Shown here: one piece after another, positions 4,230 to 55,614 of the stretch | How the letters are laid out: each line of letters opens with the position of its first letter | How positions within the stretch are numbered: the stretch's first letter is position 1 | Origin: Chiloscyllium plagiosum | Lineage: Eukaryota | Length of the DNA stretch: 64,000 bases | Reading direction: 5' to 3' | Assembly (NCBI RefSeq): GCF_004010195.1 | Contig: NC_057754.1 | Span: forward strand, 10,241,182-10,305,181 | The notes under the pieces: model-generated | Told to the model about the DNA's origin: nothing | Databases searched by the model: none | Seen by the model: the letters and a program-made list of their open reading frames with translations, nothing else | Position numbers and translations under genes: made by a program

Positions 4230-4780
4230 TTAGAGTCATAGAGATGTAGAGCATGGAAACAGACTCTTTGGTCTAACTCGTCCATGCCAACCAGACATCC
4301 CAAATTAATCTAGTCCCATTTGCCAGCACTAGGCCCGTATCCCTCTAAACCCTTCCTATTCATATGCCCATCCAGATGCCTTTTAAATGTTGTAATTGTC
4401 CCATCCTCCATCACTTCTTCTGGTAGCTCATTCCATGCATGCACCATCCTCTGTGTGAAAAGATTTCCCCTTAGGTCTCTTTCCCCTCTCACCCTAAACC
4501 TACGCCCTCTAGTTCTGGACTCCCCCACCCCACGGAAAAGACATTGTCTATTTACCCTATCCATGCCCCTCATGATTTTATAAATCTCTATAATGTCGCC
4601 CCCCAGCCTCTGACACATGATGTAAAACAGCCCCAGTTTATTCAGCTTCTCCCTACAACTCAAAACCTCCAACCCTGGCAACATTCTTGTAGAGCTTTTC
4701 TGTACCCTTTCAAGTTTCCATGGGAGGGAGACCAGAATTGCACGCAATATTTCAAAAGTGGCCCAACCAATGTCCTGTAT
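4230..4780 (-). mobile_element. CR1 3' end
   Basis: ORF 4310-4801 ERVQK..RMLPGL..WNELPEEV; ctctatgactct tail. Confidence 0.9.
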
Positions 4781-29217: not shown

Positions 29218-29897
29218 NNNNNNNNNNNNNNNNNNNNNNNNNNNNNNNNNNNNNNNNNNNNNNNNNNNNNNNNNNNNNNNNNNNNNNNNNNNNNNNNNNN
29301 NNNNNNNNNNNNNNNNNNNNNNNNNNNNNNNNNNNNNNNNNNNNNNNNNNNNNNNNNNNNNNNNNNNNNNNNNNNNNNNNNNNNNNNNNNNNNNNNNNNN
29401 NNNNNNNNNNNNNNNNNNNNNNNNNNNNNNNNNNNNNNNNNNNNNNNNNNNNNNNNNNNNNNNNNNNNNNNNNNNNNNNNNNNNNNNNNNNNNNNNNNNN
29501 NNNNNNNNNNNNNNNNNNNNNNNNNNNNNNNNNNNNNNNNNNNNNNNNNNNNNNNNNNNNNNNNNNNNNNNNNNNNNNNNNNNNNNNNNNNNNNNNNNNN
29601 NNNNNNNNNNNNNNNNNNNNNNNNNNNNNNNNNNNNNNNNNNNNNNNNNNNNNNNNNNNNNNNNNNNNNNNNNNNNNNNNNNNNNNNNNNNNNNNNNNNN
29701 NNNNNNNNNNNNNNNNNNNNNNNNNNNNNNNNNNNNNNNNNNNNNNNNNNNNNNNNNNNNNNNNNNNNNNNNNNNNNNNNNNNNNNNNNNNNNNNNNNNN
29801 NNNNNNNNNNNNNNNNNNNNNNNNNNNNNNNNNNNNNNNNNNNNNNNNNNNNNNNNNNNNNNNNNNNNNNNNNNNNNNNNNNNNNNNNNNNNNNNNN
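29218..29897. other. Assembly gap
   Basis: N run. Confidence 1.
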
Positions 29898-30251
29898 GGG
29901 GTCAGGGAGTCCAGAACTAGAGGTCATAGGTTTAGGGTGAGAGGGGAAAGATATAAAAGAGACCTAAGGGGCAACCTTTTCACACACAGGGTGGTACGGG
30001 TATGGGATGAGCTGCAAGAGGAAGTGGTGGAACAATTGCAACATTTAAGAGGCATTTGGATGGGTATATGAATAGGAAGGGTTTGTAAGGATACGGGCCG
30101 GGTGCTGGCAGGTGGAACTAGATTGGGTTGGGATAGCTGATTGGCATGGATGGGTTGGACTGAATGATCTGTTTCCATGCTGTACATCTCTATGACTCTA
30201 TGTGGCCTGACCAGAGGCTTACAGAGCCTCAGAAGTACATCCCCGCTTTTA

Positions 30252-30990
30252 TAGAGTCATAGAGAGGTACAGCATGGAAACAGATCGTTCGGTCCAACCC
30301 ATCCATGCCGACCAGCTATCCCAACCCAATCTAGTTCCACCTGCCAGCACCCGGCCCGTATCCTTACAAACCCTTCCTATTCATATACCCATCCAAATGC
30401 CTCTTAAATGTTGCAATTGTTCCACCACTTCCTCTTGCAGCTCATCCCATACCCGTACCACCCTGTGTGTGAAAAGGTTGCCCCTTAGGTCTTTTTTATA
30501 TCTTTCCCCCCTCACCCTAAACCTATGACCTCTAGTTCTGGACTCTCCGACTCCAGGGAAAAGACTTTGCCTATTTACCTTATCCATACCCCTCAATTTC
30601 GTTACCCTCTATAAGGTCACCCCTCAGCCTCCGATGCTCCAGGGAACACAGTCCCAGCCTGTTCAGCCTCTCCCTTTAGCTCAAATCCTTCAACCCTGGC
30701 AACATCCAGGGAAAAGACTTTGCCTATTTACCTTATCCATACCCCTCATAATTTCGTTACCCTCTATAAGGTCACCCCTCAGCCTCCGATGCTCCAGGGA
30801 ACACAGCCCCAGCCTGTTCAGCCTCTCCCTTTAGCTCAAATCCTTCAACCCTGGCAACATCCTTGTAAATCTTTTCTGAACCCTTTCAAGTTTCACAATA
30901 TATTTCCGTTAGGAAGGAGACCAGAATTGCACGCAATATTCCAACAGTGGCCTAACCAATGTCCTGTACAGCCACAACATGACCTCCCAA
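30252..30990 (-). mobile_element. CR1 3' end, inverted near-duplicate of 29898-30201, with an internal ~150-bp tandem duplication
   Basis: ORFs 29924-30187 and 30274-30528 are near identical; ~30553-30705 repeats at ~30706-30860. Confidence 0.88.
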
Positions 30991-38986: not shown

Positions 38987-40411
38987 TCATTGGTGTGAAC
39001 ACTGTTGATGTAGCATCTGTTCCCCAGAACTTTTAAAGCACTTCCCACAGTCTGGGCATTTAAAAGGCCTCTCATCAGAGTGAATGCGTTGATGGCGTAT
39101 CAGATCCCAGGATCTTACATAACACTTCCCACAGTCTGTACATTTAAAAGGTCTCTCCCCAGTGTGAACTCGCTGGTGTGTTATGAGATGGATTTTCTGA
39201 GTAAACCCCTTCCCGCACTCGGAGCAGCTGAATGGTCTCTCTCCAGTGTGAGTGCGTTGGTGTGCAGTGAGACGAGATGACCACTTGAACCCAATCCCAC
39301 AGTGAGAGCACTTGAACGGTCTATTGCCTGTGTGAACACGTTGGTGTAACTTCAGTTCTCCAGAGCTTTTATAACACTTCACACAGTCAGGACATTTGAA
39401 GGGTCTCTCCTCAGTGTGAATTCGCTGGTGTGCCTTGAGGTGGGAAGACTCACGAAATCCTTTCCCACACTCAGTACAGGTGAATGGCCTCTCCCCAGAA
39501 TGAACTCGCTGGTGTGTCAACAGGGTGGAAAACCGAATGAATACCTGTCCACATTCTGAGCAGATGAATGATCTCTCCCCAGTGTGAAGTCGCTGGTGTA
39601 TCGTGAGTTGGGATGATCGTTTGAACCCATTCCCACAATGACGGCACCTGAACGGTCTCTCATCAGTGTGAACTCGTTGATGGACAATCAGCTCCCTGGA
39701 ACCTTTAAAGCACTTCTCGCACTCGGAACATTTAAAAGGTCTCTCCTCAGTGTGAACGCGTTGATGGGATTGCAGGTAGCTAGAACTTTTAAAGCACTTC
39801 TTGCAGTTTGGACATTTAAAAGGTCTCTCCTCACTGTGAACCTGCTGGTGTGCCTTGAGGTGATATGACTGAGTGAATCCACTTCCACATTCAGAGCAGA
39901 TGAATGGCCTCTCCCCAGTGTGAATGCGCTGGTGGACAGTGAGTTGAGATGACCACTTAAAGCCAGTCCCACAATCAGAGCACCTGAACCGTCTGTCCTC
40001 AGTGTGAACACGCCGATGAGACATTAGCTCACTGGAACTTTTAAAGCACTTCCCACAGTCTGGACATTTAAAAGGTCTTTCCTCAGTGTGAACTCGCTGG
40101 TGTGTCAGCAGAGTGGAAAGCTGAGTGAATCCCTTTCCACACTTGAAGCAGATGAATGGCCTCTCCCCAGTGTGAATACGTTGGTGAATCTTCAGTGCAG
40201 AGCGGTGACTGAATCCTTTCTCACAGTCCTTGCATTTCCATGGTTTCTCCCCAGTGTGAATGCATTTGTGGTTCTCAAGGCCAGTTGATTGGCTAAAGCC
40301 TTTTTTGCACACAGAACACAAGTATTTGTTCTTCCCAATGTGAACAGTGTTTTGCCCTTCCATATTTAAAATCTGTTGATATTCCGGTTGTGATAAACTG
40401 GGTGACTCCAT
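38987..40411 (-). CDS. Poly-C2H2 zinc-finger protein, 474 aa, 15 complete fingers plus 1 degenerate
   Basis: Open frame of CxxC-x12-HxxxH units with TGERP/TEERP linkers; acceptor ttcacAG at 40473-40474; no KRAB or SCAN visible. Confidence 0.93.
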
Positions 40412-40979
40412 TAGGACATAACATGATGTTTAGTTTCAGGTTCCTGACTTCAAATCATTCTCTTCGCAAACCCTGTGAAATCAATTTAAAACAGAAGAAA
40501 TGAATGAGGAAGAAGACACAAAAACAGAGGAAGATTGGAAAATTGTACTGAGTGAATCTCGCAATTTGCAGGCTGGCCCTTGGGAAAAATTACCACGAGT
40601 GGTGATGGATTGTCATGGAAGCTTAACTATGGCTAAAACTAATATCAATTAGGGAGCAACCTGGTCTAAGCCAACACAAGACTGTGGAACCTATATGAAT
40701 CAGATGGTGAGGGAAAAGAAAGAGACTGAAGAGGAATTAGGAGAGGCAGGGGACAAAGGAGAGGGATTTTATAGATCTACAACTTGTGTGGAAATTTAAC
40801 AGGATGTCCAAATCCTCAATCTCCACCTTAAATGACCAGAGTAGCGGATCGATGTGAAGATGATGACCTCAAAGATCCTGAACGCTTTGACGTCCAGCAT
40901 TGGAGGAACAAAGACTTTCGACTGAAGGATGGAAGTCAATGCCTTTCAGTCCATTCAGTTACAAACTCCATTTCTCAGC

Positions 40980-46114: not shown

Positions 46115-49100
46115 TATAGAACATAGAAGAATACAGCGCAGTACAGGCCCTTCAACCCTCGATGTTGCGCCGATCCAAGCCCACCTAACCTACACTCGCC
46201 CACTATCCTCCATATGCCTATCCAATGCCCGCTTAAATGCCATAATGAGGGAAGAGTCCACCACTGCTACTGGCAGGGCATTCCACGAACTCACGACTCG
46301 CTGAGTAAAGAACCTACCCCTAACATCTGTCCTATACCTACCCCCCCTTAATTTAAAGCTATGCCCCCTTGTAATAGCTGACTCCATACGTGGAAAAAGA
46401 TTCTCACTGTCGACCCTATCTAAACCCCTAATCATCTTATACACCTCTATCAAGAGGAGATGGAGACTGTGTGAGGAGATGGAGACTGTGCGAGCTGATG
46501 GAGAGTGTGCGAGGAGATGANNNNNNNNNNNNNNNNNNNNNNNNNNNNNNNNNNNNNNNNNNNNNNNNNNNNNNNNNNNNNNNNNNNNNNNNNNNNNNNN
46601 NNNNNNNNNNNNNNNNNNNNNNNNNNNNNNNNNNNNNNNNNNNNNNNNNNNNNNNNNNNNNNNNNNNNNNNNNNNNNNNNNNNNNNNNNNNNNNNNNNNN
46701 NNNNNNNNNNNNNNNNNNNNNNNNNNNNNNNNNNNNNNNNNNNNNNNNNNNNNNNNNNNNNNNNNNNNNNNNNNNNNNNNNNNNNNNNNNNNNNNNNNNN
46801 NNNNNNNNNNNNNNNNNNNNNNNNNNNNNNNNNNNNNNNNNNNNNNNNNNNNNNNNNNNNNNNNNNNNNNNNNNNNNNNNNNNNNNNNNNNNNNNNNNNN
46901 NNNNNNNNNNNNNNNNNNNNNNNNNNNNNNNNNNNNNNNNNNNNNNNNNNNNNNNNNNNNNNNNNNNNNNNNNNNNNNNNNNNNNNNNNNNNNNNNNNNN
47001 NNNNNNNNNNNNNNNNNNNNNNNNNNNNNNNNNNNNNNNNNNNNNNNNNNNNNNNNNNNNNNNNNNNNNNNNNNNNNNNNNNNNNNNNNNNNNNNNNNNN
47101 NNNNNNNNNNNNNNNNNNNNNNNNNNNNNNNNNNNNNNNNNNNNNNNNNNNNNNNNNNNNNNNNNNNNNNNNNNNNNNNNNNNNNNNNNNNNNNNNNNNN
47201 NNNNNNNNNNNNNNNNNNNNNNNNNNNNNNNNNNNNNNNNNNNNNNNNNNNNNNNNNNNNNNNNNNNNNNNNNNNNNNNNNNNNNNNNNNNNNNNNNNNN
47301 NNNNNNNNNNNNNNNNNNNNNNNNNNNNNNNNNNNNNNNNNNNNNNNNNNNNNNNNNNNNNNNNNNNNNNNNNNNNNNNNNNNNNNNNNNNNNNNNNNNN
47401 NNNNNNNNNNNNNNNNNNNNNNNNNNNNNNNNNNNNNNNNNNNNNNNNNNNNNNNNNNNNNNNNNNNNNNNNNNNNNNNNNNNNNNNGCAGTAGCCTACC
47501 ATGGGGAACGTTATCAAACGCCTTACTAAAATCCATATATACCACATCTACCGCTTTCCCCTCATCAACCTCCTTCGTCACCTTTTCAAAGAATTCAATA
47601 AGGTTTGTGAGGCACGACTTGCCCTTCACAAAACCATGCTGACTATCCTTGATCACATTATTCCTATCCAGATGTGCATAAATCCTATCCCTTACAATTC
47701 TCTCTAAGACTTTGCCCACAACAGAAGTGAGACTCACCGGCCTATAGTTACTAGGGTTATCCCTATTCCCCTTTTTGAACAAGGGAACCACATTTGCTAT
47801 CCTCCAGTCTTCTGGGACTACTCCTGTAGACAAAGAGGACATAAAAATCAAGGCCAGTGGCTCTGCAATCTCCTCCCTTGCTTCCCAGAGAATCCTAGGA
47901 TAAATGCCATCAGGCCCCGGGGACTTATCTATTTTCACCTTTTCCAGGATTTCCAATACCTCTTCTCTACATACCTCAAAGCCATCCATTCTACTTATTT
48001 GTGCCTCTGTATTCTCATCGACAACAATGCCCTGTTCCTGAGTGAATACTGAAGAAAAGTATTCATTCAGTGTCTCCCCAATCTCTTCTGCCTCCACACG
48101 CAACTTCCCCCTACTATCCTTGACTGGACCTATTCCTACCCTAGTCATTCTTTTATTCCTAACATACCTATAGAAAGCCTTAGGGTTTTCCCTAATCCTA
48201 TCTACTAAGGACCTTTCATGTCCCCTCCTTTCTGCTTTTAGCTCTCTCTTCAGGTCCTTCCTGGCTACCCTATAACTCTCAATCGCCCCAATTGAACCTT
48301 CACGCTTCATCTTTACATAGGCCGCCCTCTTCCATTTAACAAGGGATTCCAATTCCTTATTAGACCACGGCTCCCTCGCACGACCCTTTCCTTCCTGCCT
48401 GACAGGTACATAATTATCAAGGACATTCAATAGTTGCTCCTTGAACAAGCTCCACATATCAATTACGGCCTTGCCTTGAAGCTTACTTTTCCAGGCCACA
48501 CATTTCTTCATGCCTCACAGCATCATAATTTCCCTGCCCCCGTCTATATCTCTTGCCCTGTAGTGCACACTTATCTCTCTCCATCACTAGAGTAAAAGTC
48601 ACTGAATTGTGGTCACTGTCCCCAAAGTGCTCACCTACCTCTAATTCTAACACCTGGCCTGGTTCGTTACCCAGAACCAAATCCAGTATGGCCTCACCTC
48701 TTGTTGGCCTATCTACATATTGTGTCAGGAAACCCTCCTGCACACATTGGACAAACACTGACTCATCTAACGAACTTGAGCTATAGCTTTCCCAATTAAT
48801 ATCAGGAAAGTTAAAGTCTCCCATAACAACCACCCTATTACTTTCACTCTTCTCTTGAATCATCCTCGCAATCCTTTCTTCTACGTTTCTAGGACTATTA
48901 GGAGGTCTGAAAAAACTCCTAACTGGGTGAGCTCACCTTTCCTATTCCTAACCTCAGCCCAAACTACCTCAGATGGCGAGTCTTCATCCATTGTCCTTTC
49001 CACCGCTGTAATACTATCTTTGACAAGCAATGCCACACCTCCCCCTCTTTTACCCCCACCTCTGACCCTACTAAAACATTTAAACCCTGGGACCTGCAAC

Positions 49101-49215: not shown

Positions 49216-49949
49216 AAGGATTCTCAATTATCCGACTTGCTGAGTCACCAGTGAGTTCATAAATGACTACAGTGTTTTAGTTTCTGTTTATGACAACCTA
49301 GACCTAACCATGTTGAATGCGATCTCCTGCTGATGTTAATAAGCTTCAGCCCAATTGCACTGTCTAATACAAAACAATGCCGGAGGTCTGAAATAAAAAC
49401 AGAAGTGACTGGAGAAATTCTGCGGGTCTGACAGCAGAAAGCAGAGTGAACGCTTCGAGTCCAGTGACTCATCAGAAACGAAAACAAATTGCTAGAAAAG
49501 CTCAGCAGGTGTAGCAGAAACTGAAGAGAAAATAGAGTCAACATTTCAGGTCAAAGAGTCATGGAATCCTACAGCACGGAGACAGGCCCTTTGGTCCAAG
49601 CCGACAAAGCACACTAACTCCATTCCCCTGCATTTGGCCCATCTCCTTTTAACCTTTCCTATCCATGCATTTGTCCAGATGCCTTTTAAATGTTGTTTCT
49701 GTACACACCTCAACTACTTCCATGTGACTGCTCATTCCATATGTATACTACACAGTATAAAAACGTTGTCCCTCAGGTTCCCTTTTATTCTTTCCCCTCT
49801 AACATTAAACTGAATGATTCACAAACTTAACTAACACATTCTCTACATTGTGGAGACAGGATGCCAATTCGCGCTGAGAATGTGTATAAGGTACGAGCAG
49901 GTAGTGAAAGAACACCAAACCTGATCGCAACACTGACTGGGAAGGAATA

Positions 49950-50085
49950 GAGACTAGTGAGTGGGTCCTAATCCGAAACTGGGACCCCACTGGAAAGGGC
50001 CATTCCAGGTGTTGCTCTAAACCCCCACTGCAGTGACAGGGAAGGGAAAGAATCACTGGATTCACCTGAGCAAATGTAAATGGTG
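49950..50085 (+). pseudogene. pol: Retroviral integrase C-terminus
   Basis: EWVLIRNW..WKGPFQVLL*TPTAV..WIHLSKC matches the gamma/epsilon-type GPY/F module. Confidence 0.8.
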
Positions 50086-50526
50086 GATGACAGACCAAGG
50101 GAAGGAGGAAAAGGACTGATAAAAACTAATCTGTACTTCTGTATTGCCAGTTTTGCTAATGATATATCACGTGCATCTATACTTGCCTCCAGTAAGGTGA
50201 CGGGATGGGGTTACTGTGGGAGATTATTAGCATTACGATGGCTTAGCAGGGATATTGCTAGAAAAGCTCAGCAGGTCTAGCAGAAACTGAAGAAAAAATA
50301 GAGTCAACATTTCAGGTCAAAGAGTCATGGAATCCTACAGCACGGAGACAGGCCCTTTGGTCCAAGCCGACAAAAACGTCCATCCACACTAACTCCATTG
50401 CCCTGCATTTGGCCCATATCCTTTTAACCTTTCCTATCCATGCATTTGTCCAGATGCCTTTTAAATGTTGTTACTGTACACACCTCAACCACTTCTATGC
50501 GACTGCTCATTCCATATGTATACTAC

Positions 50527-52490
50527 GTCTGTCTAACCAGAGTATTGAAGGGAGGGTCAAGATTTGCAAGCTGGGTAGACGTAATCAGGTCCATCATTTG
50601 TGCAGGAGAAATATTCTCACTTGTACCAATGAGCAAGGGAACCAGTTTGAGATGCAGAAGGTTACTAAAATCAATTACTGCAATGGATTGCTCATCCAAA
50701 CAGATTGTAAGTTGGTCCTCGACCAAAGGAATCTGCGACAACTCCCATGTTGGTACTGGGGCTGCAAGTTTGACTATACCTGCAGGAGGGACCCTGGAAG
50801 GGAGAGACCATCACCTTATTGTATGACAAATGCAGGGGAATGGAGTTAGTGTGGATGGACGTTTTTGTCGGCTTGGACCAAAGGGCCTGTCTCCGTGCTT
50901 TTAAAGCTATAAGGGAGGCTCTGAAAAATAACCCCTCCCTGCAAGAAATATACCGCCCCAACCCCACTACTGTCTCCATGACTCAGTCCCGCAGAGCCCT
51001 CTGGTAAAGAGCAATCGGTATTGACATTCAGGAATACACGGCTGGCAATTATTTCTACCAGGTCTACCAACAGACTGTATGGTGATGGCACCACTGCTTG
51101 CTTCCCTCGATCCACTGGAGAGAACTCTCTCTTCTCCAGTGTCCCTCAGTGGGACCGTGGCCTACACTACCAGTGCTCTCTAGCCAGTAACAGTTTGCCA
51201 CAATGCTGAAGAATAACTCTTCAGTACGAACCTGCACAGACCCCCATGGCAGACTGCATGTATCTTCCCAGCCTTTTGACCACATGGACAGAGCTTGGCT
51301 CAAGGGGGACATGTGGTGGGAAGACAGAAGAGGGAAACTTCCCCAGTAACCACTGGGGATATGAGAGATGCTTCACTGGTAGTGGGGCGGGGGGGCAGGG
51401 CGGTGGATGTTCAGAAGTGTTCATTTGTAGTGAGAAAACCTTTCACCTTTACCGCTCCTGCCATCGTCACAAGTGCAGACCTACCCACCCAGGACATGCG
51501 AGTGTCAATTGCCATTACAACAGCTCCGACTGTGTTCTCTTTAAACGAGGGGAACGGCTCCTATGTGGTAAAGTCGACTGTACCCACCTCACAGTGGATG
51601 CCTGTGTCTTTGTCCTTCCCCAAAACAGAGATGGAGTTAAGGAAGTATCGTGTCCCACTGGCGCCACATTTGCCTGGATTAACCATGATTACTCTCACGA
51701 TAAAGGCTATTCAGAAACCCTTTCTACAGACCCGGGTTATTTTATCTTCTTTAACGGTATGGCCACAAACTTCCTAGAGTCCCCTTACCCTCACTCGGTG
51801 GCCCTTGGAACCCTACTTCCCAGGAGGGTACCCTGTCCGGGGCATTAGGGACTGGCACCCAGCCGTCAGAAGTGTGATGTCTCTGAGGAGTTTTGCGCTG
51901 CCTATAAAGACCTTCCCACTCTTCCTGCCAGACAGGCAGCTGGTTACGGGGCAGCAGGCATTTTCTGCCTTGGAGCTTCTGGGGCCAACATGGCCACCCA
52001 TAAATGTAACTATCTTGCATGCGGACTTACCATGCTGGGCAACGCTACCCACACAGCGCTCAAGGTCATCACTCAGAACCTGAACCAACTCAGACTTTTG
52101 TCCATGCAAAATCACTATGCATTGGATTACCTCCTTACCCGCCAGGGTGGCGTTTGCCCTATAGCACAGGACAAATGCATCATGGACCTGCACGACGTCA
52201 CAGCTAATGTTACCCGTTATGTCCACAAGATGGATGAACAATTAGGGTCTATAAAGGAGGGCAAGAGATGGGCCGGAAGGGGAGACTGGAAGCTCGGAGG
52301 ACGGAAGGACTGGCTAGTCATAATGGCTATTTAGGCAGGGGTGGTTATAATAAGAATCTTCCTGGGAATAGCTGTTCTGAAATGTATCTTACATCAAGTG
52401 ATAGACTCCATGCAGGGATTATTTCCAACAGGACGGGCTTTGGTGACCCGATACCCAGCTATTGAGGATTCCAAATGGCAACAGCACTGA
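50527..52490 (+). pseudogene. env: Retroviral env (Cys-rich SU plus class I TM)
   Basis: ORFs 50409, 51021, 51246 and 51990 share one frame; RQK(C) furin relic at 51864-51875; QNHYALDYLL..GGVC-x6-C; hydrophobic anchor ~52311-52390; final stop at 52488; 5' limit uncertain. Confidence 0.88.
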
Positions 52491-52694
52491 GGTCGGCCCC
52501 CATGCCATCGGTTATCATGAAACGATAAAAGGAGCGAATGAGAATGCATATCGGGTATGAGCGGGTAGGGAAAGAGTGAAGTTTAGGGGTGCGTGACAAA
52601 GGCTCAACTGGCATGACTTTGATCGGATAAGAACTTGCAGTAAACAATGAGGTGCTGGAGGCAAGGGTTTGGCTTAACAAGGTGAAGTACATCC

Positions 52695-54666
52695 CGGGTT
52701 TGGTTAAGAAAGAGAAGGAAGCATATGTCAGGTATAAACAGGATAGATCGAGTGAATCTTTAGCATATAAAGGAAGTAGGAGTATACTTGAGAGGGAAAT
52801 CAGGAGGGCAAAACAGGGACATGAGATAGTGTTGGCCTATACAATTAAGGAGAATCCAAAGGGTTTTTACAAATATATTAAGGACAAAAGGGTAACTCGG
52901 GAGAGAATAGGGCCCCTCAAAGATCAGCAAGGCAGCCTTTCTGTGGAGCCACAGAAAATGGGGGAGATGCTAAATGAATATTTTGCATCAGTATTTACTG
53001 TGGAAAAGAATATGGAAGATATAGACTGTAGGGAAAAAGATGTGTTGCTGGAAAAGCGCAGTTCTGATCTCCATCATCTGCAGTCCTCACTGTCTCCTGT
53101 AGGGAAATAGATGGTGACATCTTGCAAAATGTCCAGATTACAGAGGAGGAAGTGCTGGATGTCCCTAGGACCTGATCAGGTGTACCTGAGAACACTGTGG
53201 GAAGCTAGAGAAATGATTGCTGGGCCTCTTGCTGAGATATTTGTATCATCGATACTCGCAGGTGAGGTGCTGGAAGACTGGAGGTTGGCAAACGTGGTGA
53301 CACTGTTTAAGAAGAGCGGTAAAGAATAGCCAGGGAACGAGAGACCGGTGAGCCTGACCTCGGTGGTGGGCAAGTTGTTGGAGGGAATCCTGAGGGACAG
53401 GATGTACATGTATTTGGAAAGGCAAGGACTGATTCGGGATAGCCAACATGGCTTTGGGCGTGGGAAATCATGTCTCACAAACTTGATTGAATTTTTTGAA
53501 GAAGTAACAAAGAAGATTGATGAGGGCAGAGCAGTAGATGTGATCTATATGGACTTCAGTAAGGCGTTCGACAAGGTTCCCCAGAACTGGATCAAAGGTA
53601 GAAGACAGAGGGTGGTGGTGGAGGGTTGTTTTTCAGACTGGAGGCCTGTGACCAGTGGTGTGCCAAAAGGATCGGTGCTGGGCCCTCTACGTTTTGTCAT
53701 TTACATAAATGATTTTAATGCAAACACAAGAGGTACAGTTAGTAAGTTTGCAGATGACACCAAAATTGGAGGTGTAGTAGACAGCGAAGAGGGTTATCTC
53801 AGATCACAACAAGATCTTGACCAGATTGGCCAATGGGCTGAGAAGTGTCAGATGGAGTTTAATTCAGATAAATGTGAGGGTGCTGCATTTTGGGAAAGCA
53901 AATCTTACCAGAACTTATACACTTAATGGTAAGGTCCTCGGAAGTGTTGCTGAACAAAGAGACCTTGGAGTGCAGGTTCATAGCTCCTTGAAAATGGAGT
54001 CGCAGGTAGATAGGATAGTGAAGAAGACGTTTGGAATGCTTTCCTTTATTGGTCAGAGTATTGAGTACAGGAGTTGGGAGGTCATGTTGCGGCTGTACAG
54101 GACATTGGTTAGGCCACTGTTGGAATATTGCGTGCAATTCTGGTCTCCTTCCTATCAGAAAGATGTTGTGAAACATGAAAGGGTTCAGAAAAGATTTACA
54201 AGGATGTTGCCAGGGTTGGAGGATCTGAGCTACAGGGAGAGGCTGAACAGGCTGGGGCTGTTTTCCCTGGAGCGTCGGAGGCTGAGGGGTGACCTTATAG
54301 AGGGTCACAAGATTATGAGGGGCATAGATAGGATAAATAGACAAAGTCTTTTCCCTGGGGTCAGGGAGTCCAGAACTAGAGGGCATAGGTTTAGGGTGAG
54401 AGGGAAAATTTTATAAAAGAGACCTAAGGGGCAACTTTTTCACGCAGAGGGTGGTACGTATATGGAATGAGCTGCCAGAGGATGTGGTGGAGGCAGGTAC
54501 AATTGCAACATTTAAGAGGTATTTGGATGGGTATATGAATAGGAAGGGTTTGGAGGGATATGGGCTGGGTGCTGGCAGGTGGGACTAGATTGGGTTGGGA
54601 TATCTGGTCGGCATGGACAAGTTGAACCAAAGGGTCTGTTTTCATGCTGTACATCTCTATGACTCA
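52695..54666 (+). mobile_element. CR1 RT to 3' end, truncating the ERV LTR
   Basis: ORFs 52652-53110, 53348-53926, 53817-54416; tail ctctatgactc; small Penelope-like insert at ~53036-53096 with TSD ctgtagggaaa. Confidence 0.93.
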
Positions 54667-54914
54667 TTGTGTAAAGCCAGTTAAGGAAGTGAGGAACATC
54701 TACTGTGTAACTCCAGATGGCTTCAGCCCCAGAGTAACAGCAGGTTGGATTTTGCTGTTATTGCTGCTGTCAATCCGATCCAGGATTTATTGAGAGACAC
54801 AATTTGCTTTGTTTTTTCTGTGGTTAACAGCCGTTTAACTCTGGGGCTTAATTTTCTGTCAGTGTTGCTGATTTATGAGGCTGCAATGATTCTTTGAAAA
54901 TGTGGAAGTGCTAA

Positions 54915-55062: not shown

Positions 55063-55614
55063 GTGCCACAATTAACCCCCCCCCCCCATTCAAGAGTTCT
55101 CAAGAACTTGTAGACAATAAAATTATTATGTTTTACTTGACACTAAACAGATGTTTTGTGTAAAATCTACAATTCAGAGTCTGAAATATTCCTCTGATTA
55201 ATGTCTCCGATTAGAAAGTGAAGAGTGACCGTAAGTAGGGGAAGGAGGAAATGGTGCAGGTGGATTTGGATTTTGGCCCAAAGACATGGGAGACTGTATG
55301 GGGCTGGGATTTAATAGTCTCTCCCAGCAGGAGTACCTTGGTATACAATGAGAGCAGATGACTGTCTGAAACTCTTTCCCCATGAATTACAGGTGAAGGA
55401 TTTCTCCTCAGTGTGAATTCACTGGCATATCTGGAGGCTGAAAGTATGAGTGAATTTCTTCCCATATACAGAGCAGTGGAATGGTCTCTCTCCAGACGAG
55501 AGCACTAGTATGCTCTGAGAAGACATGACTGCCTGAAACTCTTTCCACATGAACCACAACTGAACACTTTCTGGCTGGTGTGACAGCAGATTGGATGAAC
55601 GAGTAAAGCTTATG

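Follow-up and report, generated by a model that had tools for sequence, protein, structure and literature searches.

The segment at positions 51849–52490 of the Chiloscyllium plagiosum window (the whole stretch of 64,000 nucleotides that was analysed) codes for the SU end and the TM (fusion subunit) of an env gene that has decayed. We conclude with high confidence that it represents a dead env copy of a class I shark ERV family, whose TM is a class I fusion subunit with an internal loop likely closed by a disulfide, and which most likely falls into the group described in 2024 by Nino Barreat & Katzourakis (PMC11521997). By itself, the locus adds only a further decayed copy to a lineage that has been published. 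What is new is that the family may have its nearest relatives in Tapajós, a snake filovirus, and Mab2, a lizard env, and not in Ebola or Marburg. The shark family bears on the origin of the filovirus entry protein, and its published placement (posterior 0.83) was obtained with a short domain.

The elements surrounding the env, all on the + strand, follow the order of a deleted provirus: LTR stub, integrase end, env, polypurine tract and truncated 3′ LTR. The 5′ LTR stub (first ~37 bases, 49875–49911) was detected by blastn with LTRs from other copies (78–89% over 27–38 nt, E 1.6e-5 to 8e-3), a short match that provides weaker evidence. It is joined almost directly to the C-terminal integrase end, which contains stops (49913–50110; Pfam MLVIN_C 33.9 bits at a cut-off of 29.2, E 2.6e-8), while gag, the remainder of the LTR and the greater part of pol have been lost; the alignment of the locus with whole proviruses begins near 49913. 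The region of the pol/env junction is split by a 273-bp non-viral insertion (50254–50526), seen as a gap in the alignment with other copies and showing a 93% self match to 49488–49751. On the other side of the env, the polypurine tract is followed by ~150 bases from the start of the 3′ LTR (52524–52684, TG start at 52539).

The env is much longer than 51849–52490, the homology to other envs reaching from about 50514. Its N-terminal domain (50514–50840) was matched in tblastn by residues 10–117 of P0004 (E 6e-10) and residues 26–74 of P0017 (E 9e-12); this domain was found in the subfamily of this copy and in P0004, while the P0006-type envs start at the SU core. The SU core (51066–51839, with a stop at 51207) shares homology with the SU of intact members of the family and gave 83 bits against a profile of nine natural SUs in which the window was not included. 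In total, the env bears seven premature in-frame stops (50847, 50910, 50922, 50979, 51207, 51846 and 52332), and this copy is unable to make a membrane-anchored Env. The original prediction had obtained the TM by reading through two TAG codons. The translation is as it stated, but only TAG 52332 lies within 51849–52490, TAG 51846–51848 near the SU end being located just before it. In our read-through translations, stop codons were entered as X.

The read-through TM comprises, in order, RQKC-DVSEEFC, a Gly/Ala-rich stretch, NYLACGL, the sequon NAT, an ISD-like segment, C-X6-C, the sequon NVT, a hydrophobic anchor and a short tail. The SU/TM junction RQKC (51864–51875) does not conform to the furin consensus in this copy; many relatives have basic residues here, and the full R-x-K-R is present in P0003 and P0011. 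The putative internal fusion loop is a Cys-X41-Cys segment (51894–52022), Gly/Ala-rich and mildly hydrophobic with a hydropathy peak of 1.27, which we assign from Cys conservation and alignment. HR1 with the sequon NAT, the ISD-like segment, C-X6-C at 52155–52178 and the sequon NVT occupy 52041–52214, followed by the membrane anchor, which is cut by TAG at 52332, and the cytoplasmic tail ending with TGA at 52488 (52314–52490). In Pfam, the TM matched TLV_coat above the cut-off (23.6 bits vs. 22.5) and the Ebola-like HR1-HR2 domain below it (21.1 bits vs. 27). Together with the ISD columns, invariant in the alignments, the TLV_coat match shows that an ISD is present between HR1 and HR2.

In the 70-row alignment, both loop Cys align with Cys of the filovirus, Tapajós, CASV, Mab2 and alpha-like TMs, and they are kept in 29/38 and 32/38 distinct family copies, with a spacing of 39–43 in five proteins. 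The Cys-bounded internal loop that had been predicted from the window is thus borne out across the family. The two sequons are kept in 28/38 and 32/38 distinct copies and the two chain-reversal Cys in 32/38 and 33/38. The chain-reversal motif, however, is C-X6-C-I with two Cys only, whereas Ebola GP2, ASLV and gamma envs have CX6CC: none of the 38 distinct copies has the third Cys, its position being occupied by I in 31, M in three, V in one and Y in one, with gaps in the other two. When this position was tallied over 152 TM rows, 102 had CC, 29 were not scored and 21 had a single Cys, namely 13 rows of the shark family, Tapajós GP, Mab2, five squamate-group rows and one other. We also noted that the Anolis/Ahaetulla env group (P0035, P0056, P0060, P0072, P0148) combines a Cys-bounded loop with the lack of a third Cys. 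In the SU, a CXXC motif was found in none of the five family proteins checked, three of which are partial. Pfam detected no EGF domain in P0001, P0004 or P0006.

A search of the C. plagiosum genome revealed at least 150 matches to the env (of 1832 candidates, 150 were scored, and all of them matched), which fall into two identity bands. Among 20 longer loci that were fetched, paired LTRs were measured in six (K2P 0.11–0.20), and RT or IN remnants were found on the env strand in 11. The family RT matched MLV best (103 bits), with 69 bits for foamy virus and 46 or less for HIV; the RT and IN together also pointed to MLV and not to the class II pol of alpharetroviruses. Because the RT is MLV-like, the LTR pairs are diverged, pol survives as remnants and the frames are broken, we regard the family as an old and decayed class I ERV family. 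The same genome harbors a second, larger subfamily (L014–L018, L020, L033–L040) with 35–45% TM identity to the window and a different LTR start (L040).

Given the directly observed proviral context, the numerous copies bearing LTR pairs and an MLV-like RT, the TM motifs and the frame breaks, a mode of action may be proposed for the ancestral protein. Cleavage at a basic site would have split the ancestral Env into SU and TM; once the receptor was bound, the internal loop would have entered the target membrane, and HR1 and HR2 would then have folded into a six-helix hairpin. By analogy with filovirus GP2 and ASLV TM, the fusion loop would be internal and closed by a disulfide. We infer this ASLV/GP2-like mechanism because the available text of PMC9967133 describes a Cys-bounded internal loop as the alpharetroviral variant. 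The same source states that the third Cys of CX6CC makes the hallmark SU–TM bond of gamma-type Env, that the SU CXXC is missing in the proteins of alpharetroviruses and filoviruses, and that non-mammalian gamma-type envs commonly carry a glycan in HR1. Since the TM lacks the third Cys and the SU lacks CXXC, the usual SU–TM disulfide probably played no part in holding the SU, which we propose more tentatively than the loop mechanism. The family thus suggests an alpha-like Env that worked without the hallmark disulfide of gamma-type envelopes. AlphaFold gave two models of poor quality (pLDDT 48.8 and 49.0), which were uninformative as to loop closure and the SU fold.

The named family members, among the matches listed, come only from sharks and rays (Chiloscyllium, Hemiscyllium, Rhincodon, Heterodontus, Pristiophorus and Mobula). 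The Chiloscyllium punctatum protein P0009 is identical to the window at 93 of 100 residues over 52032–52331, which supports a shark host, and ends exactly at the premature TAG 52332; therefore, it likely represents an orthologous insertion that was already broken in the common ancestor. In several shark species (P0012, P0197, P0199), long env frames persist, and the horn shark gene models named ‘syncytin-1-like’ or ‘ERV FC1 Env-like’ (P0005, P0010, P0154–P0156, P0198) belong to this family as well.

When the TM was compared with PDB chains by phmmer, the best matches were filovirus GP2 (52 bits, E 5e-13), followed by CASV GP2 (29.5), syncytin-2 (24.7) and ASLV TM (16). Such a ranking, along with the likely orthologue kept in C. 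punctatum at 93%, might be taken as a sign of an integrated filovirus glycoprotein gene or of an env domesticated by the host. We hold this to be extremely improbable: the integrase lies 5′ and the polypurine tract and LTR lie 3′ of the env, seven premature stops interrupt its frame, the C. punctatum protein ends at one of them, and in the 80 fetched loci no stop-free frame over 304 aa with an ISD motif was found. For this copy, both an endogenous filovirus and a domesticated env are refuted by the retroviral context and the breaks.

The PDB alignment also confirmed that both glycan sequons align with those of GP2, as had been proposed. The earlier count of 28/69 identities to GP2 was reproduced, by hand as 29/69 on the GP2 chain 9vt4_B and by script as 28/69 against the Sudan GP2 construct. 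Its use as a sign of filovirus kinship did not survive, because four ordinary gamma-type env rows reach 27/69 and the figure is not diagnostic. Averaged over the family, the identities in the 69 columns were 25.0 for filovirus GP2, 25.2 for Tapajós and 24.2 for other gamma envs. These values, together with the ordinary class I pol and the gamma-type envs reported from six cartilaginous fish in the available text of Chen et al. (bioRxiv 2021.11.23.469661), would fit a fish ERV env of the ordinary gamma or epsilon kind, the likeness to GP2 being nothing but the general kinship of gamma-type TMs. The trees make this improbable. In the 70-row TM tree, the shark family formed one branch (99/96) inside a wide branch with the filovirus, CASV, squamate, turtle, Tapajós and Mab2 TMs (97/82), next to the alpha-like envs (99/87); in 969, 749 and 875 out of 1000 bootstrap replicates, this wide branch stood apart from the remaining 35 gamma rows. 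Besides, among the rows shown, the paired loop Cys have an aligned counterpart only in that branch and in the alpha-like rows. The placement among ordinary gamma or epsilon envs is largely refuted by the 70-row tree and the bootstrap counts, and the initial view of a chondrichthyan retrovirus env that groups with filovirus, reptarenavirus and alpha-like TMs, away from most gamma envs, is upheld. The Anolis/Ahaetulla group and the Pelodiscus turtle envs P0026/P0097 were placed in the same wide branch.

As for the sister group within this branch, the 70-row tree joined the shark family with Tapajós and Mab2 (95/89; 94/80 in the core-only tree). Under three settings, shark + Tapajós/Mab2 was recovered in 944–963 of 1000 bootstrap trees, and shark + Ebola/Marburg in 0–3 of 1000. 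A profile search of 1.84 billion proteins (E ≤ 0.001) agreed with the former grouping: among the best 150 of 676 matches, the first one outside the family was Tapajós virus GP (80.7 bits), with scores of 64.6 for Marburg GP and 52.6 for CAS virus GP. A kinship with Tapajós GP and Mab2, in which the Env is homologous along its full length and all three lack the third TM Cys, is in our opinion about evenly balanced between right and wrong. The AU test did not reject the grouping of the shark family with Ebola/Marburg (p 0.183), and in a smaller, 27-row tree the pairing with Tapajós and Mab2 received 186 and 454 of 1000 against 287 and 343 of 1000 for the published pairing with Ebola/Marburg. Because the AU test and the 27-row tree leave the published grouping standing, the TM alone does not decide the sister group. 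The third-Cys character is also shared with the Anolis/Ahaetulla envs, and the tarsier and Varanus elements of PMC11521997 were absent from our TM trees. The trees did not fix the position of CASV.

The SU provides a signal that is independent of the TM and favours a shark–Mab2–Tapajós lineage. The hhalign comparison gave 96% both for the shark SU with Mab2 and for Mab2 with Tapajós GP1, and a joint shark and Mab2 profile gave 85% with Tapajós, a value reached in none of 60 shuffles. Mab2 came first of 73 non-family SU parts, with 35.6 bits vs. 13.6 for the next. The direct shark–Tapajós score, however, was not significant (1–3%; one of 60 shuffles was as high), and the likeness of the three SUs could be an ancestral state lost elsewhere, in particular in the fast-evolving GP1. 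The shark SU showed no likeness to Marburg/Mengla GP1 (0.25%) or CASV GP1 (0.15%), and the squamate and alpha-like SUs scored about 1% or less. In the shark family, Mab2 and Tapajós, there is a Cys near each end of the SU, and the two might pair with each other, as far as their positions suggest.

The placement in print differs. According to its Fig. 6 text, PMC11521997 resolved the ectodomains of cartilaginous-fish ERVs (from Chiloscyllium, Scyliorhinus, Amblyraja and Leucoraja) as the sister to the GP2 of Ebola, Lloviu, Marburg and Mengla viruses with a posterior of 0.83, Tapajós being joined with elements from Mabuya and Varanus (1.0) and reptarenaviruses grouping with the ERVs of tarsiers (0.98), while our larger trees put the shark family with Tapajós and Mab2. 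We consider the published arrangement the less probable of the two and rather unlikely. Our best ML tree of the 27-row set under LG+G4 does contain a shark + Ebola/Marburg branch, though with support of 29/17, and the loop spacing and the HR1–ISD likeness are in keeping with it. Nevertheless, the near absence of this branch from the 70-row bootstrap trees, the lack of an SU–GP1 sequence signal and the CX6CC retained by these GP2 but not by the shark family argue against it. In the table of the same paper, one Amblyraja element has Tapajós GP as its best match, which is consistent with the kinship to Tapajós and Mab2.

Section 11 of PMC11521997 and its supplementary table contain the lineage already, a case that the original prediction had itself named as refuting, so that a GP2-like env in chondrichthyan retroviruses, as put forward by that prediction, was in print. 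Our assignment of the locus to that group as most likely is based on host genus, best matches and context, not on a sequence comparison with the published rows. The ERVs described there share with ours the host genus, the retroviral context, a filovirus GP as the best viral match and an Ebola-like HR1-HR2 domain; they are treated as ectodomains only, and the available portion of the paper is silent on the SU, the fusion loop and the missing third Cys, its section 11 naming neither the Anolis/Ahaetulla nor the turtle env group. The SU homology and the missing Cys are thus two characters that the published part of the analysis available did not use. Chen et al., as far as their available text goes, list orthologous ERVs in Chiloscyllium and note CXnC variants and novel fusion peptides; unlike our analysis, they do not tie shark envs to filoviruses and state no alpharetroviral likeness for the new fusion peptides. 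Because gamma-type envs of cartilaginous fish and CXnC variants are catalogued there, the shark family may be among their data. In the available portions of other reports, Proudley et al. (bioRxiv 2026.05.06.723177) report chondrichthyan envs that have CX6CC, leaving filoviruses unmentioned, Hötzel (bioRxiv 2021.11.05.467493) finds a common SU/GP1 fold, models Mab-Env3 and 4 and leaves Tapajós unmentioned, Stenglein 2012 (PMC3419519) sets out the reptarenavirus–filovirus GP2 link, and Horie 2021 (PMC8498845) does not mention retrovirus, envelope or Mabuya; PMC11721365 contributed nothing further. Within the limits of the literature covered, we found no statement of a whole-Env link between shark ERVs, Mab2 and Tapajós or of a family-wide loss of the third Cys.

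Among known systems, Tapajós GP (YP_010798909.1) and Mab2 (ATY46612.1) resemble the shark family in the Cys-bounded loop, the two-Cys chain reversal, the SU homology traced via Mab2 and the Cys near the SU ends; they differ in the motif, which is C-X7-C, and their TM identities over the 69 columns are only 26 and 19. The GP2 of Ebola, Sudan, Marburg, Lloviu and Mengla viruses have the Cys-bounded loop, sequons in HR1 and HR2, an ISD-like segment and 23–29 of 69 identical residues. Yet they belong to genes of negative-strand RNA viruses, keep CX6CC and are accompanied by a GP1 without sequence likeness to the shark SU. Reptarenavirus GP2 (CAS virus, AFP93551.1) has a similar loop stretch and both loop Cys and scored 29.5 bits, but retains CC, and its GP1 is unlike the shark SU. 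The ASLV-type Env is similar in its internal Cys-bounded loop and in lacking CXXC in the SU (PMC9967133, in the available text). In the Atlas comparison, the family SU led to gp85-bearing clusters (0.92). ASLV TM differs in its low score (16 bits), the CX6CC kept and the class II pol, the shark RT being MLV-like.

On the whole, we tentatively propose, with slightly less than balanced confidence, that shark ERV envs, Mab2 and Tapajós GP constitute one lineage in which both subunits are homologous and the Cys of the SU–TM disulfide is lacking, that Tapajós virus captured a whole env, and that the sisterhood of the shark family with Ebola/Marburg is wrong. If this is true, Tapajós virus took an entire retroviral env, together with the GP1 part, from a lineage that ranges from sharks to lizards, and the Ebola/Marburg glycoproteins are left without a known retroviral sister group.

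Several other features of the window deserve mention. Beyond the truncated 3′ LTR lies an RT-bearing interspersed repeat (52690–54700; RVT_1 82 bits at 53330–53923), which we take to be of the LINE type; copies of it are located near 4230, 13500, 24000 and 30250. Long open frames over 29218–29897 and 46521–47487 are artefacts, because these stretches are runs of N; the first of them adjoins a 304-nt inverted repeat (97%) at 29898–30554. On the − strand, positions 38987–40429 contain a 480-aa open frame with ~15 tandem C2H2 zinc fingers in an 84-bp repeat (Pfam zf-H2C2_2, 336 bits), and a lone zinc-finger unit similar to this array is found at 55349–55430.
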